From a virus, in the IMG/VR virus record IMGVR_UViG_3300012211_000009: a DNA stretch of 28,184 bases; one strand, given 5' to 3'. The notes beneath the pieces were generated by a model, which made no database searches, was not told the DNA's origin, and saw only the letters and a list, made by a program, of their open reading frames with translations. Of the stretch, positions 3,180-24,840 are shown in pieces. Each line of letters opens with the position of its first letter. Positions within the stretch are counted from its first letter, which is position 1. Both the position numbers and the translations under genes were made by a program.

Positions 3180-3190
3180 TTATTATGTCC

Positions 3191-3241
3191 TTGACAAATC
3201 TATTAGGTTTTAATATTATATTAACTTATATTATAAGTCAA
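3191..3241. promoter_or_regulatory. Overlapping divergent sigma70-type promoters sharing their -10 region
   Basis: Plus strand: TTGACA (3191-3196)-N17-TATTAT (3214-3219). Minus strand: TTGACT (3241-3236)-N17-TAATAT (3218-3213). Confidence 0.7.
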
Positions 3242-3250
3242 TGGTGGTGT

Positions 3251-3844
3251 ATGAATAAGTCAGATGATATTTCTCAGCTTGCTTTAGCTCTGTCAAAGCT
3301 ACAGGGTGAAATTAAAGATGCTTACAAAGATAGAAAAGGTTATGGCTATCAATATGCTGATTTATCTAGCGTATTGGATATAATAAGGCCACTATCTAGC
3401 AAGTATAGATTGTCGATCACTCAACTTCCTGGCGCAGTTGGAGAAAAGGTTTCGCTTGAGACAGTGTTAATGCATGAGTCTGGGCAGTGGATTAGTTCTA
3501 TAATTGAAATGCCAGTACAGGTTGGCAAGGGAATGAGTATGGCTCAAGCCACGGGCGCCGTATTAACCTATGCCAGGAGATATGCTCTAGCCGCTATTTT
3601 TGGAATAGCCCAGACGGATAATGATGCTGCCATATCTGAACCTTCTGTTTCGATTGTGAAGTCCAATCTTTTCCAATCTTTTACATCTCTTATAAAAGAG
3701 ATGAACGTTCCTGATGATGTGGTTTGCAAATGGCTGGATAAAGCTGGCGTATCTTCTGCAGAAGAACTGCCAGAGAATGTTTTAGAAAAGCTTATATCTA
3801 TCATGAATACTAAAAAATCATTAGAGGGTAAAGATAATGTTTGA
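3251..3844 (+). CDS. erf: ERF-family single-strand annealing protein (recombinase), 197 aa
   Basis: YQYADLSSVLDIIRP, ITQLP, LETVLMHESGQWISS and GAVLTYARRYALAAIFGIAQTDNDA are characteristic ERF motifs; start MNKSDDI at 3251, downstream of the promoter. Confidence 0.85.
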   Translation: MNKSDDISQLALALSKLQGEIKDAYKDRKGYGYQYADLSSVLDIIRPLSSKYRLSITQLPGAVGEKVSLETVLMHESGQWISSIIEMPVQVGKGMSMAQATGAVLTYARRYALAAIFGIAQTDNDAAISEPSVSIVKSNLFQSFTSLIKEMNVPDDVVCKWLDKAGVSSAEELPENVLEKLISIMNTKKSLEGKDNV

Positions 3845-4468: not shown

Positions 4469-4625
4469 TTATCATAAGATAACGCCCATTTATTGGGATA
4501 AGAGCGAAAGAAAGGATGTTGCTAAAAATTTCTTATGCCAGTATTGTTTTAGGATCTTCTCATTAGAGGAAATATCTGACAGGCATTCTAGGATGTGTCA
4601 ACTTGAAAAGGAAATGGCAGATTAG
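4446..4625 (+). CDS. Small Zn-finger-like hypothetical protein, 59 aa
   Basis: GGAGG RBS before ATG 4446 (MLKCSEND); CQYC ... H-x-x-x-C; converges on the terminase stop. Confidence 0.55.
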   Translation: MLKCSENDYHKITPIYWDKSERKDVAKNFLCQYCFRIFSLEEISDRHSRMCQLEKEMAD

Positions 4626-5947
4626 AACCCTGATTGATATTTTACTGGTTGTGAGATGTCAGGGCGGGTGAATTCTTGTCTCCACACAACCGCTAAATAT
4701 CTTAGACAATCTGAAGCATGTGAGCACCAATTATGAAGGGGTTTAGATTTGAATACTTTGTTTTCCTCATCGTACTCTCTGCGATATTCTCGGAGGGCAT
4801 CTATTAATGGCTGACAATAAGAACCGTGTATCCGAATTGATGGAAACAATGCTCGGACTGCTTGAATGCCATTGTCGATACCAACGTCGGGCACTCGAAG
4901 GAAGTGAATCCCTACTTCGTGTGCTAAGGACAACGATGAACGAGCTGAAGAGCCCCACTCCCGCTTTGATATATCGTGAGGAGCAAAGTGATGTTTGTAA
5001 CGAAACCCAAACCTTTGAGCCACCTCATCTAATTGGTGTTTAAAATAATCAACCCCTTTATCGGTTTTCTCAATAAAATAAACGATGTTTATATAATCCC
5101 CTTCCTGTTGAAAGAATATTATACATGTAGGATCGCTTACTCCAAGGTCCCAACTGGTAAATACGGGCAAGCGATTGTTTATTTCAAATGGATTCAGGCG
5201 ACCTTCATATTCCGCCTGCTCTATCTCTGCTGTAAAATAAGCCCCCTGTACTCCCACATTGAAATCCAAATACCATTCTTGCCTTATTATTTCCTCAGAC
5301 ATGCCCTTTTTTCGCTCTATATCTATCTGAGCCTCTGTTATTACAGGTGTTCCATCAAGTTTTTTAGTATCCTTTATGGTATGCTTACGAACAAACCAAG
5401 AAGGATCGTTTAATGCATTTAGATAAAGATGATACGCATGATTCTTGCCGCGAGGCGTGGATTGCGCGATTAGAAAGCCTCCATTCTCTACCAGGATTGG
5501 GGATAGATATTGAAACGCTAAGGGACTGTGCAGCGCGAACTCTGACATCACTATCCCTATTGGATTCGTTCCCATTAACGCATTGTAATTATTGCTGCCG
5601 CCCAATTGAATTATCGAACCATTCATCAGCTGAATAGACATCTCAGTATTATTAACTTTATAAATTATTTCTTTTGGGATCATCTCTATAAAAGGGGTGC
5701 CATCTCCTATTATCCCCCGCCATATAACCTTACGAGCCTGCGTATGTAGAGGTAGAAGATATAGATAAGTGCCCACACGCTCACAGGCTGCCCCCCATAA
5801 AACATTCCAACATAACAAGTCTTTTCCAGCTCTTCTGTGACAAAAGAAAAGAAAGTTCTTAATCTTCTTTTCAAAGAATGCATGAAGAAACTCGGTCTGA
5901 TAATGCCGAGGTGAAAAAGTAGGATATTTTAATATCTGTATATTTAT
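4622..5947 (-). CDS. terL: Terminase large subunit, about 441 aa (inferred non-canonical ATA start at 5947)
   Basis: The frame is open upstream of the track's TTG (5818) and encodes FSPRHYQ (adenine-binding/Q motif) and CHRRAGKD (Walker A). Downstream: IVMSEFA (Walker B variant), QSTPRGKN, nuclease motifs SWDLGVSD and HASDCLRY. Identity is confident; the start codon is uncertain. Confidence 0.9.
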   Translation of the reverse strand: MNIQILKYPTFSPRHYQTEFLHAFFEKKIKNFLFFCHRRAGKDLLCWNVLWGAACERVGTYLYLLPLHTQARKVIWRGIIGDGTPFIEMIPKEIIYKVNNTEMSIQLMNGSIIQLGGSNNYNALMGTNPIGIVMSEFALHSPLAFQYLSPILVENGGFLIAQSTPRGKNHAYHLYLNALNDPSWFVRKHTIKDTKKLDGTPVITEAQIDIERKKGMSEEIIRQEWYLDFNVGVQGAYFTAEIEQAEYEGRLNPFEINNRLPVFTSWDLGVSDPTCIIFFQQEGDYINIVYFIEKTDKGVDYFKHQLDEVAQRFGFRYKHHFAPHDISKREWGSSARSSLSLAHEVGIHFLRVPDVGIDNGIQAVRALFPSIRIHGSYCQPLIDALREYRREYDEENKVFKSKPLHNWCSHASDCLRYLAVVWRQEFTRPDISQPVKYQSGF

Positions 5948-6180
5948 ATATCCTTTTTCTGGGCGTCACCCTCTTCAGCCTCTATCTCATCGATAATTTT
6001 ATCCACTGAACCGGACGGTAAGTGAAGTTCTTGCTCAATAACCGATTCAGCTATATTCTCGATGACATTGTTTTTGCCATAAGCAACGATAGAGATAACA
6101 CCCACTATAATAGCTACTATGATTATAGCGATGGTATATACCCACTTGTATGCCATTAAGGCCAGAAAGATTCTTTTCAT
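5944..6180 (-). CDS. Holin-like single-pass membrane protein, 78 aa
   Basis: One long hydrophobic helix (YTIAIIIVAIIVGVISIVAY) and a charged C-terminus, located just downstream of the endolysin. Confidence 0.5.
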   Translation of the reverse strand: MKRIFLALMAYKWVYTIAIIIVAIIVGVISIVAYGKNNVIENIAESVIEQELHLPSGSVDKIIDEIEAEEGDAQKKDI

Positions 6181-6281: not shown

Positions 6282-6759
6282 CTTTTGTCTCCTTGTTTAA
6301 AAACCTAAAATAATTCCTAATGAAATCTTCCTTTACGGCTCTACCTTTTTCAGTATTCCAAAACTTCTTGTAATACTCCCATAAGGCATCAATATCAGAC
6401 GTTGATGGCAACGCAGCTGTTGCTCTCAAATAAAATATTCTAGCCATTGCTGTTGAATAGAATAAATTAAATACTAGCATGCTTGATAGTGGTTTTGTGC
6501 TCATCTGACAGGTTGTCATCAATCGATGGGTAACTTCTGAATGATTGGGCATAAACTTGGTCCAGATATCATCATGGGTAACGGGCTCCATTTGATAAAT
6601 ACCTAAAGCGGGTCCATGATCTTCTTTTAAATAAGTTCCGCCTAAACTCTCATGAGCTGCGGTTGCTATTAGAAGCTCTTCTGCAACGGGCGAATCTAGT
6701 TTAAGACCCACAAGAACCGGTCTTATTATACATTCCCTTAATTGCTGATGGTCTATCAT
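6250..6759 (-). CDS. Endolysin, lysozyme/lytic-transglycosylase-like fold, 169 aa
   Basis: LLIATAAHES (catalytic Glu) ... GPALGIYQMEP ... YYKKFWNT motifs; GAGG RBS before ATG 6759 (MIDHQQL). The track's 71-aa N-terminal extension overlaps VRR-NUC. Confidence 0.7.
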   Translation of the reverse strand: MIDHQQLRECIIRPVLVGLKLDSPVAEELLIATAAHESLGGTYLKEDHGPALGIYQMEPVTHDDIWTKFMPNHSEVTHRLMTTCQMSTKPLSSMLVFNLFYSTAMARIFYLRATAALPSTSDIDALWEYYKKFWNTEKGRAVKEDFIRNYFRFLNKETKDESTKQKRKV

Positions 6760-7114
6760 ACTTCGTGCCTCTAATATATTCCGATAAAATAATCCGTGCT
6801 TCAAACCAATCATACACCACTTCAACTCTGTATCCAGCATCTTTGAGTTTGTCATGCATATTTTTTTGGATTTGTGTAACCACGCCACCCTTAGATTTAA
6901 ACTCAATAAAGAGACCGTGGCATCCATTAGATGGAATAGCAACCTGAATATCAGGAACCCCGCTCTTAACACCCATTCGCTTAAAGGCTATAGCTTCCCG
7001 AATATTACGCTTTCCGCCATTAGGCGTATGCCAAACCAGACTCGATATGTTCGGGTTTAGATTTACCCAGTTCATAAAAGCCTCTTGATGTGAGGCTTCT
7101 AATCTTTTTGCCAT
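6701..7114 (-). CDS. VRR-NUC domain nuclease (PD-(D/E)xK), 137 aa
   Basis: EASHQ ... HTPNGGKR ... MGVKSGVPDI ... GLFIEFK ... Q ... L ... GY.V.V pattern. Confidence 0.9.
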   Translation of the reverse strand: MAKRLEASHQEAFMNWVNLNPNISSLVWHTPNGGKRNIREAIAFKRMGVKSGVPDIQVAIPSNGCHGLFIEFKSKGGVVTQIQKNMHDKLKDAGYRVEVVYDWFEARIILSEYIRGTKYDRPSAIKGMYNKTGSCGS

Positions 7115-22083: not shown

Positions 22084-23558
22084 TAAGCCACCGTTATTAC
22101 GCCAGAACTCGATAGTACTGTAAATGTTGTATTTGCAACCGTGCAAACAAGTTTAATAGTATTGTATCGATTCGTTGAAGCTAAAGAACCTGCCACCGTA
22201 GTTGGCGTTCCATTAAGATTAGCAGTTTGTCCTGCATTCATGCGAACCAACCAACCTCCAGCACCCTGTCCTGCAACTTCAAATAAATCACCAAAAGCAG
22301 CGGTCGCTGGCATATTTAATGTTGTAAGGCCGGCATTATTGGCACTATAGGAAGTATTAGCAGCGAGTGTAACGGGAGTTGATGTTTGATCAATCCATGT
22401 ACCAACTGCATTATTTACCCAAGATTGAACACCAGCTGTCGTAGAGCTTAAGACTTGCCCGTTAGCCGTAGGTAATGCCAATGGAGTCGTATATGTCTGA
22501 CTTGATACGACAGCGGCAGATTGCCATGCTGTATAAAAAGTGCCAGCACCATTCCAAAGCTTTATCGAACCTGCAGCTCCAGTAGTTGAAGGAAGCACCG
22601 CAAAACCGCCAGTCGCACCTTTTCCAACTATCGCGACATCAATAACAGCATCGGTACCTTTAGCTTGTAAAGAAGGTTGTAAGGCAGCATTTGCAGCATT
22701 CGTTGCGCTACTAATGACCGATAGATAGTCAACAGCAACAGCAGGCGATGTATCTACTTGAAATCCACGAAGGGCACCAGCTGAGAAGTCTAAAACTCCG
22801 CCAGCAGATGACCACATTCCTGTACCAAGTGTTCCGGTAAAGCTATAAGAGGGTGTAGCGGCAGCGCCTACATTATTAATAACTGCGCCCGTAGACTTTG
22901 GAACTAACCTTATTCCGATTACAGGATCTGTTCCAGCGGCTGTAATAGTCGGACCATTACCAGTTGCCGAAGCGGCTATTGCTAAATAGTTAACCGATAA
23001 AGCCGGAGAGGCTGAAACCTGAAGGCCTCTAAAAGCATTAGTTGAGAAATCTAAAGTATTAGCTCCAGATCTCCACATACCAACATCGGTATCGTTTGTA
23101 AATGTGTAACTTGGTAAAGCAATCGTTCCGTCAGCATTAGCAATAGAATTAACAAGTGTTAAATCACCCGTATCGCTTTCAAGAATCACACCATTCTGAA
23201 TGAGCTTTCCAGTTGCTCCATCAAATCTTACCAATGCATTATCAGTCGCTGCGGCAGGACCTGTCACATCTCCAAGTCCAACATTCTGTCCAATGGTGAC
23301 TGTCGCTGCATTCTTATCAACCGTTAATACTTCCCACCACTCAGATAAATCTGAAGCTGAAATCCATATTAAATCATTAACTGATAACCTATCTGAGACA
23401 GGCGCAAAGTAATTAGCTGCCGAAATAGTGGCAGCTGTTTCTGTAGCAGATTGATATGAATAAATGGCAGGGGCACCTATTACGGTGCCATCCTGTAATG
23501 TTATCTGGTTATTACCTGAAGATGTCAGGTTACTCCAGTTCGATGCATTAAAAGGCAT
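22083..23558 (-). CDS. Putative head fibre: N-terminal decoration-like domain plus a shaft with a tandem 87-aa repeat, 491 aa
   Basis: Immediately after the capsid gene; N-terminal AANYF...LSVNDLIW; GDVTGPAAATDNALVRFDGATGKLIQN fibre-type motif; duplicated PSY.FT....GMW.S....LDFS unit. Confidence 0.65.
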   Translation of the reverse strand: MPFNASNWSNLTSSGNNQITLQDGTVIGAPAIYSYQSATETAATISAANYFAPVSDRLSVNDLIWISASDLSEWWEVLTVDKNAATVTIGQNVGLGDVTGPAAATDNALVRFDGATGKLIQNGVILESDTGDLTLVNSIANADGTIALPSYTFTNDTDVGMWRSGANTLDFSTNAFRGLQVSASPALSVNYLAIAASATGNGPTITAAGTDPVIGIRLVPKSTGAVINNVGAAATPSYSFTGTLGTGMWSSAGGVLDFSAGALRGFQVDTSPAVAVDYLSVISSATNAANAALQPSLQAKGTDAVIDVAIVGKGATGGFAVLPSTTGAAGSIKLWNGAGTFYTAWQSAAVVSSQTYTTPLALPTANGQVLSSTTAGVQSWVNNAVGTWIDQTSTPVTLAANTSYSANNAGLTTLNMPATAAFGDLFEVAGQGAGGWLVRMNAGQTANLNGTPTTVAGSLASTNRYNTIKLVCTVANTTFTVLSSSGVITVA

Positions 23559-23578
23559 GCCAAATCCTCCGTTTTAAA

Positions 23579-24683
23579 TTAAGGATTTACGGATTCATCA
23601 GCTTGTACAAGGATAATACCTCGTGGATCCACAGCAACCGCACCTGCAAAGAATAATCCATTAACAAACCAGGAGGTTTCTCTTGGTAAATAGTTAATTT
23701 CAGTTCTCATATCTTGCCCAATACCCATACCCATAGACATATAATGCCAAGCAAAACAGTTACGGATATTAGCGAGGATTGGAAGACCGCCTTCAGTCAT
23801 ATCTGGAATGATACGAACATTGACGCTTAATAGGTCTTTATACTGCAATGTTCCATCTACAACGGTATCATTGCTGGTATAGAAACGATTAGTGATGTGA
23901 TCATCTGCCAATAAAGCTCTTAAGTTATTACCAGACATTGCCATGAAACGTTCTGATAAAGGCACAGCATTTTGTTCAAATACTTGCACCACGTTTCTGA
24001 GCTTGGCGTAAGTCATATTGGTACCAGCTGGAAGAATGGTCGTACCACCAGCAGCTACAGCACCCAAGCCCAGAGCATCAATAATGATTTGGTCACTTCG
24101 ACGACCGATCGCCATGGCTACAACCATAGCTAACTCCCTCTTGGAGTCAAAGTTAACAGTTAAATCTTGGATTTCATCGACCGCAGTACCAGCAGCGTAC
24201 TTAAGTAACGTAGCAGTAAGAGCTACGAAACCTGGATCTTGAATTGCGATAGTATTTGAATAAGCAACTTGGTTAGCAATAACCTGCCCTACTCGTCTGA
24301 ATTGGACACTAGCGCCGATAACATCAGTACGAATACGAATAGTATCTCGTAATATGAATCCTCTTGAACGATATTCTGCCTTGCAATATGTTCAAATAAG
24401 TTCGCTACTCTTATCCCGTCTTTCGACAGCTTGTAGTTACCTACAAGTTCAGACTATATCTTAATCCCTGTGGGATCCTGTGCGCTTCCACTCGCTTGAG
24501 TGTACGGCTTTCGCCTAGTCGTTGAACCTTCCCTTTCGGGCTTGGCTGCTGATTGTCCTTCATTTTTGAGTGGGATGTCCCAGCAATTCACACAGTTTTC
24601 TAATATCAATTACTTGATATAGTGGCCTAGTTAACCAATGCATCGAATTCTGTTTGTTGAACATTAGTGAGTGATAAAGCCAT
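23579..24683 (-). CDS. Major capsid protein, 284 aa after splicing (exon 1 = 24634-24683, exon 2 = 23579-24383)
   Basis: AGGAG RBS before ATG 24683. Exon 1 MALSLTNVQQTEFDAL-GT joins C-AAG to give VKAEYRSRGFILRDTIRIRTDVIGASVQFRRVG..., in frame with the track's 182-aa ORF (50 + 805 = 855 nt). Located between the scaffold and the structural block. Confidence 0.9.
24384..24633 (-). ncRNA. Group I self-splicing intron (IA-like, ORF-less, 250 nt)
   Basis: 5' exon ends in U and the intron ends in G. P GAAUUGCUGGG, Q AAUCAGCAG, R GUUCAACGACUA, S AAGAUAUAGUC. P3 CUGUGUG/CGCACAG, P7 GACUA/UAGUC, plus GNRA-capped P2, P6, P7.1, P9 and P9.1 hairpins. Removal restores the capsid frame exactly. Confidence 0.93.
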
Positions 24684-24741
24684 GTCGGGCCTCCTGAAAA
24701 CATAAAAACTAATCCGTTAATTTCAATGTTCTTGCCTTTCC

Positions 24742-24789
24742 GGGCCAGGAGACTCGGGTAGCCGTTAGGGGCCGAGGCTAGTGGGTAGC
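24742..24789 (-). repeat. Tandem GC-rich motif GCTACCC-N9-GGCCC (two copies, 27-nt period) in the capsid 5' leader
   Basis: Plus strand: GGGCC (24742-46) N9 GGGTAGC (24756-62) and GGGCC (24769-73) N9 GGGTAGC (24783-89). Confidence 0.7.
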
Positions 24790-24811
24790 AGTAAGTCTTG
24801 AACTTGCTATC

Positions 24812-24840
24812 AGATTAGCAGCGCTTGTGACTTAACGCAA
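24812..24840 (-). promoter_or_regulatory. Putative sigma70-type promoter for the capsid gene
   Basis: TTGCGT (24840-24835)-N17-TAATCT (24817-24812) on the minus strand within the intergenic gap. Confidence 0.4.

Follow-up and report, generated by a model that had tools for sequence, protein, structure and literature searches.

Why does the major capsid gene in IMG/VR virus record IMGVR_UViG_3300012211_000009 stop after only 18 codons, and then resume 250 nt further on in a frame that clearly encodes the rest of a head protein? The DNA analysed here, called the window throughout, is a stretch of 28,184 nt, and the interruption lies at 24384-24633 on its minus strand. An earlier note, made from the letters alone, had read the insert as a group I intron without an open reading frame (ORF), and the coordinates that it gave for the break and the resumption of the frame hold to the base. 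The analysis that followed leaves us highly confident that the 250-base insert, which falls after the second base of codon 17, is an IA-type group I self-splicing intron without an ORF, as judged from its sequence and that of its relatives, and that it sits in a Phage_capsid_2 gene of an uncultured T7-like podophage.

The anatomy of the gene can be read directly. Its ATG lies at 24683 on the minus strand, with a Shine-Dalgarno sequence, AGGAGG (24690-24695), seven bases 5' of it. From this ATG the frame encodes MALSLTNVQQTEFDAL in 16 codons and then runs through GT|T AAC TAG into a stop at 24629-24627, which would halt any ribosome that passes from exon 1 into an unspliced intron; it is open again 3' of a TGA at 24394-24392, and continues through to 23579. 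Exon 1 (24634-24683) therefore comprises the ATG, 15 further codons and GT, the first two bases of Val17, and exon 2 (23579-24383) comprises the third base of Val17, 267 codons and the stop. Joining GT (24635-24634) to C (24383) restores Val17 and gives a protein of 16+1+267 = 284 aa, the length that had been predicted. The product of exon 2 (P0001, 267 aa, translated from 24382) matches Pfam PF19821, Phage_capsid_2, with 135.9 bits (gathering score 25, E 2e-39), and it also matches PHROG 3437, a major head protein. The Pfam match covers profile positions 16-293 of 293, and the approximately 14 N-terminal positions absent from exon 2 correspond to the amount that exon 1 would supply.

The exact junctions come from homologues that lack the insert. 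A search with exon 2 returned 1223 homologues, mostly with lengths of 280-289 aa, and the closest of these, the intronless protein P0002 (284 aa, 97% identical to exon 2), starts with MALSLTNVQQTEFDALVKAEYRSRG, which is exon 1 plus Val plus exon 2. Specifically, the 16 residues of exon 1 are the first 16 residues of P0002, the predicted spliced N-terminus equals that of P0002 at 25/25 residues, and no further gap appears when the two exons are aligned with intronless homologues. At the DNA level, alignment with two intronless loci, L001 and L002, gives one clean 250-base insertion with both flanks aligned, and BLAST homology to intronless loci breaks at 24631 and at 24382-24383; the alignment across the junction that the earlier note had proposed as a check was thus obtained for both protein and DNA. 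On the 3' side G24384, which had also been named as the terminal G (omega G), is the sole choice that restores the capsid frame. It closes the intron within the family-conserved 3' end GAACAUAUUG, which is kept in relatives, and the junction that it produces matches the homologues. Differences at the junction itself (TTG GT-C AAG in the window, TTA GTA AAA in the intronless gene) were considered as adaptations of the P1 helix, but they carry no information on this point and the idea was rejected: for all their 97% identical protein, the two phages share only ~75% DNA identity overall. The exact spliced-junction and 5'-junction strings of the window are absent from IMG/VR.

The group I identity of the insert is supported by the covariance model that had been suggested for this purpose. 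Rfam RF00028 matches 24670-24430 over its full length (model positions 1-253 of 253, not truncated) with 94.4 bits (E 2.3e-23) against a gathering score of 50 bits, and besides this match in the capsid gene neither a second intron nor any other Rfam match was found in the window, even at E<=1. The minimum-energy fold has a z of -4.45 and recovers P1, P2, P3, P4, P6a, P7.1, P7.2, P8, P9, P9.1 and P9.2. Moreover, all of the P, Q, R and S elements and the P3-P8 core strands, including the P3/P7 pseudoknot, could be located and are complementary, with P (about 24590-24579), Q (24554-24546), R (24527-24515) and S (24462-24452) at the positions already proposed for them. Nearly all of the 250 nt is taken up by ribozyme helices, and the ORFs that overlap the intron are only frames of 36-51 aa, in agreement with the claim that it carries no endonuclease.

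Following the RNA from its 5' end, P1 is formed by the exon sequence UGGU (24634-24637), whose U24634 makes the U.G pair at the 5' splice site, and by the complementary internal guide sequence GCCA (24623-24626), which is followed by the P2 hairpin CUA-UAUCAA-GUAA-UUGAUA-U-UAG (24600-24622). P3 pairs CUGUGUG (24589-24595) with CGCACAG (24478-24484). Between its strands lie the P4-P5-P5a domain (24547-24585), for which the Rfam alignment gives P4 as UGCUGG/UCAGCA, P5 as UCC/GGA and P5a as UCA-AAAA-UGA; P6/P6a, GC..CCC-GAAA-GGG..GU (24526-24546), which rests on the same alignment and on complementarity; the 5' strand of the guanosine-binding helix P7, GACUA (24516-24520); and, at 24489-24515, the hairpins P7.1, GGC-GAAA-GCC (24515-24506), and P7.2, CACUC-AAGC-GAGUG (24502-24489). 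The P8 hairpin GAUCCC-ACA-GGGAUU (24463-24477) and the complementary 3' strand of P7, UAGUC (24452-24456), come next, and P9 (CUUGUAG-GUAA-CUACAAG), P9.1 (CUGUC-GAAA-GACGG) and P9.2 (GAUAAG...CUUAUU), all present in the computed fold, occupy 24395-24447. The list of helices drawn up in the earlier note was sound for P1, P2, P3, P6, P7, P7.1, P7.2, P8, P9 and P9.1, all of which are complementary, and left out P5, P5a and P9.2. Its P4 (UUGCUG/CAGCAG) exists as a helix, with ends that differ from those of the Rfam version by one base pair; since five pairs are shared, the two are the same helix.

The fold is also supported by comparison. The structure of the window intron was projected on an alignment of eight family members, and the controls were versions in which the 3' partners had been slid by 1-3 columns, together with 500 shuffles. 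Standard pairs filled 92.6% of the cells, compared with 35-43% in the slid controls, a count that tends to be favoured over the slid versions by taking the structure from one of the aligned sequences; less affected by this is the number of pairs that change on both sides, which was 35 of 74 compared with 4-11 in the slid controls. None of the 500 shuffles reached the observed pairing values. The covarying helices are P2, P3 (in which five of the seven pairs change on both sides), P5, P5a, P8, P9, P9.1 and P9.2, and the invariant ones are P4, P6, P7 (8/8 relatives), P7.1 and P7.2. P1 follows its guide: in relatives it takes the forms UCGU/GCGA, GACU/GGUC and AGCGGU/GCCGCU, with the U.G pair kept and the other pairs changing on both sides.

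Subgroup IA is marked by two extra hairpins, P7.1 and P7.2, in the interval from the 5' strand of P7 to the 3' strand of P3 (PMC3984707), and both of them are found in that interval here. On this structural ground the intron is of subgroup IA, as had been proposed, and 'IA2-like' is the careful wording for a finer placement. By BLAST its 3' half (intron positions 104-247, 144 nt) shares 69.8% identity with the T4 nrdB intron (E 3e-6), and IA2 accounts for over half of the viral group I introns (PMC11835236).

A second assembly carries the same element. The metagenome contig L046 (Ga0137371_10022127) shares 96.5% DNA identity with window positions 22719-24703, and it contains the intron at the identical position (95.9 bits with RF00028); since this contig is independent, an assembly artefact is ruled out. 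Exon 2 differs between the two at six positions, all six of them synonymous third codon positions. The intron also differs at six positions, all confined to the loop of P2 and the P5 region, and these include a compensatory change from A-U to C-G in the P5a hairpin and a change from C.A to U-A in P5. The third-position changes in exon 2 and the compensatory changes in the intron indicate that both the capsid protein and the RNA fold look constrained. Divergence between the two contigs is uneven, with 12 differences in ~110 bases from the P5 region through exon 1 (24560-24703) and only 7 in ~1160 bases from the 3' two-thirds of the intron through exon 2; this jump looks like a recombination boundary inside the intron.

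The intron belongs to a family that is spread among uncultured phages. Eleven other contigs contain, without a mismatch, the 36-base string that spans P7, P7.1 and P7.2; their introns score 82-112 bits, and the string is absent from species-representative bacterial and archaeal genomes. Endonuclease ORFs often accompany family introns. One such intron lies in motif B of a family B DNA polymerase gene, with a NUMOD3-motif ORF upstream (L039); another in the CxxxCxxC motif of a radical SAM gene, with a GIY-YIG ORF upstream (L040); a third just upstream of a gp19-like tail tube ORF that scores below the Pfam cut-off, with a GIY-YIG ORF adjacent (L041); and a fourth in a large terminase gene, with an HNH ORF that is probably inside the intron, the contig starting within the ORF/intron region (L042). 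In L041 (a 543-kb contig, positions 2218-2560) exon 1 possibly has four or five codons, counted from a GTG behind AAGGAGG, and the GIY-YIG gene next to the intron is on the opposite strand.

To place the family more broadly we followed a 19-base core string spanning P7 and P7.1, which occurs in 81 IMG/VR contigs, and scanned with Pfam the same-strand frames on either side of the introns, 77 of them downstream. Major capsid genes make up ~11 of these 77 downstream contexts, although where a capsid match is downstream only the intron could in principle sit just 5' of the gene and not inside it. The capsid contexts comprise SU10_MCP (3, matched on both sides of the intron), Gp10A-like (2), P22 coat (2), Phage_capsid_3 (1), Phage_capsid_2 and Phage_capsid_4 (1 each, at one locus), Mu gpT (1) and PF05065 (L045). 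The remaining contexts include polymerases and reductases (family B polymerase 12, family A polymerase 4, ribonucleotide reductase 3-4), and packaging and tail genes (several terminase families, portal 3, tail sheath 1, tail tube 1).

The SU10 matches on both sides of the intron confirm that those capsid genes are split, and direct inspection of the sequence confirms the same for L045, L108 and L117. In L117 (166-600) a T7 gp10-type capsid gene is cut at the conserved ISSG|SSAQFP by an intron of ~250 nt without an ORF, whose P1 is AGCGGU/GCCGCU. In L045 (163-2944) the capsid gene, of HK97 type (PF05065), is broken into three or more pieces, the first intervening segment holding an HNH/NUMOD3 ORF and the second, of ~267 bases and without an ORF, being a family intron of 111.6 bits; the 3' ends of the two intervening segments look alike. 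The distant Phage_capsid_2 gene of L108 (7145-7960) has an exon 1 of 20 codons and then an intron that holds a LAGLIDADG ORF (PF14528); this intron is thus an endonuclease-bearing relative, within the same capsid family, of the window intron, with which it shares the P3 sequence CUGUGUG/CGCACAG. The two capsids are 22% identical (not significant by BLASTP). We considered whether L108 and the window share a homing site, since the profile positions agree within a residue or two, and did not adopt the idea, which is unproven with capsids so diverged. A hidden Markov model (HMM) of the close capsid homologues had no match among the ORFs adjoining family introns, where the Phage_capsid_2 case, L108, is a distant member. 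Finally, the P22-coat gene of L070 is without about the first 20 profile positions.

How the gene would be expressed follows from this anatomy. By analogy with the established pathway of group I introns, we infer that the intron splices in vivo: the ribozyme would fold in the late transcript, the guide GCCA would pair with the exon UGGU, free guanosine would attack after U24634, and the freed exon 1 would then attack after G24384, so that the exons would be joined as ...GCAUUGGU-CAAGGCAGAA... and the 284-aa capsid protein translated. On unspliced RNA, ribosomes would reach the UAG after two intron codons and stop there, immediately 5' of the guide sequence; such in-frame stops are common in phage group I introns and are thought to help the intron fold (PMC3984707). 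Because of this gene anatomy capsid synthesis must depend on splicing, a claim of the earlier note that we share.

Where the intron came from was approached through its distribution and through a search for an endonuclease. The Pfam and PHROG scans covered the window ORFs of at least 90 aa, except a few that overlap larger genes, and in addition a 67-aa ORF in the 516-base spacer 5' of the capsid gene. No HNH, GIY-YIG or LAGLIDADG domain was found in the scanned ORFs within the 28,184-nt window, which is not the whole genome, and the 67-aa ORF likewise had no match to any of the three. A group I intron was absent from 38 of the 38 loci fetched by capsid similarity, several of which encode capsids that are 89-97% identical in protein. 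With all 38 related loci free of the intron, and with the window and L046 forming a tight pair, the simplest reading is a recent gain, which we regard as likely for the window/L046 lineage on this comparison of genomes.

Could the intron do more than interrupt the gene? Its position is 50 bases inside the late gene with the highest expression, a stop codon follows the splice site by two codons, and two diverged phage genomes, those of the window and L046, have kept it. One might therefore imagine that it splices and has been recruited as a regulator, with capsid synthesis gated by guanosine nucleotide level, magnesium or the host translation state, an idea that we consider very unlikely. In such a scheme the stop codon would park ribosomes over the guide, and capsid output would be tied to ribozyme folding relative to translation speed and to guanosine supply, a mechanism to which we likewise attach little credence; if true, the intron would be a checkpoint coupling head assembly to the physiological state of the host. 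All 38 related loci manage without the intron, however, the nearest of them encoding a 97% identical capsid. Moreover, relatives of the intron occur in many unrelated genes, often beside or around homing endonuclease genes, which is the signature of a selfish element, and the intron has no added sensor domain, all of its helices being standard core or IA-type peripheral ones. The 'metabolic or timing gate' of the earlier note is thus speculation, as nothing in the sequence sets this intron apart from an ordinary selfish intron.

The insert might instead be a decayed remnant that no longer splices, in which case the capsid gene would be a pseudogene of a defective phage or prophage. We judge this to be even less probable than a regulatory role. 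Some features do weigh against a simple, intact self-splicing intron: P5 in the window copy carries a C.A mismatch, and P10, the pairing with the 3' exon, is not evident, only scattered pairs having been found. A remnant would not be expected, however, to retain a full-length covariance-model match well above the cut-off, or P4, P6, P7, P7.1 and P7.2 identical to those of all relatives, and the six exon 2 differences from L046 are all at third positions, with compensatory changes in the intron. A further complication is the route of arrival, which could have been reverse splicing into a short matching site of the UNGU type, or endonuclease homing followed by loss of the endonuclease. The exon ends 5' of three family introns have the form UNGU (UGGU in the window, UCGU in L039 and L040), each followed by its own guide sequence (GCCA in the window, GCGA in L039 and L040), and such sites with matching guides are compatible with either route. 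Overall, the capsid intron is best read as a selfish passenger recently gained by its lineage.

The surroundings of the gene identify the kind of phage. In the Pfam and PHROG scans a portal gene (PF12236) and a T7-type scaffold gene come before the capsid gene and the tail genes come after it, and the neighbourhood also includes genes for tail tube proteins, an internal virion protein and a tail fibre; together these genes form the structural module of a T7-like podophage, an uncultured one. The untranslated leader 5' of the capsid gene (24700-24825) is conserved with intronless relatives: by BLAST the leader and exon 1 (24825-24631) are 80% identical to L001, the corresponding figure being ~75% for the capsid and neighbouring genes. 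The leader holds G+C-rich hairpin-like strings such as CCCGGAAAGG, and could function as a late promoter, as a processing site or as a terminator hairpin. Elsewhere on the minus strand a terminase-like frame (4622-5965) is open from 5965 and has no ATG, GTG or TTG before the TTG at 5818; its portion 4625-5818 had no Pfam match, and no group I intron was detected there. The left end of the window carries a ParA/MinD-type ATPase and an ERF recombinase on the plus strand, and a VRR-NUC nuclease is encoded on the minus strand (the three lie at 69-752, 3185-3844 and 6701-7114), an unusual set beside a T7-like structural module, in which the ParA-type gene hints at plasmid-like maintenance.

These results bear on how uncultured phages are annotated. 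The longest ATG-started ORF at the capsid locus is a 182-aa C-terminal fragment, and a gene caller would give an 18-codon stub and this fragment in place of the 284-aa capsid protein, the truncation that had been foreseen, so that capsid-based classification of this phage lineage would fail. The locus, whose joined exons correspond exactly to intronless homologues, is also a clean example of an ORF-less structural-gene intron from a small T7-like podophage. Moreover, major capsid genes account for roughly one in seven contexts of an IMG/VR intron family defined by sequence, and terminase, portal, sheath and tube genes are interrupted too, indicating that the textbook placing of phage group I introns in DNA-metabolism genes under-describes the uncultured phages.

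Among the known systems, the T4 nrdB intron is of subgroup IA2 and carries a defective endonuclease gene, I-TevIII. It resembles the window intron in having a ribozyme of the P7.1 and P7.2 type and in lying in a protein-coding gene of a phage. In contrast to the T4 intron, which sits in a nucleotide-metabolism gene and has an endonuclease ORF, the window intron is in a capsid gene and has none.

Introns in capsid genes have been published for the lactococcal phage Tuc2009, where the intron is listed as group I, and for the mycobacteriophage LittleE, where it was judged most likely to be group I (Pope et al. 2013, PMC3706429). These two cases, together with the capsid contexts counted above (~11/77), show that the location is not the unusual one that the earlier note took it for. 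In LittleE, whose capsid intron carries an endonuclease, splicing was demonstrated by RT-PCR and N-terminal sequencing; it was also shown for the endonuclease-less 265-bp intron in a tail gene of mycobacteriophage BAKA, and both introns are efficiently spliced during late expression (PMC3706429). All three phages share with the window an intron inside a virion structural gene, which in LittleE and Tuc2009 is the major capsid gene, and the BAKA intron is also of similar size and without an endonuclease gene. They differ in being siphoviruses of Gram-positive hosts with unrelated capsid families, and the LittleE capsid intron further differs in its endonuclease gene and in that its splicing was demonstrated, which for the window we infer. 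Closer in the ribozyme itself are the uncultured relatives L117, L108 and L045, which share the 19-base P7/P7.1 core string and an interrupted major capsid gene, with a similar N-terminal intron position in L108. Unlike the window, however, their host genes are unrelated or only distantly related, and the L108 intron and the first intervening segment of L045 hold endonuclease ORFs.

In collaborative homing an ORF-less intron is paired with a free-standing endonuclease aimed at the same site (PMC3984707). The loci L039, L040 and L041 resemble this arrangement, with a GIY-YIG or NUMOD3-motif ORF immediately 5' of an ORF-less intron, whereas the scanned ORFs of the window, those close to the capsid gene included, yielded no endonuclease gene of any family. 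Small group I introns can also be numerous in uncultured phages: jumbo gut phages have a mean of 18.5 per genome, in essential genes, and some of these have been confirmed by metatranscriptome reads (PMC12880540). Set beside these systems, group I introns in capsid genes are already known, and the window is a further case, in a new host gene family and a new phage lineage.

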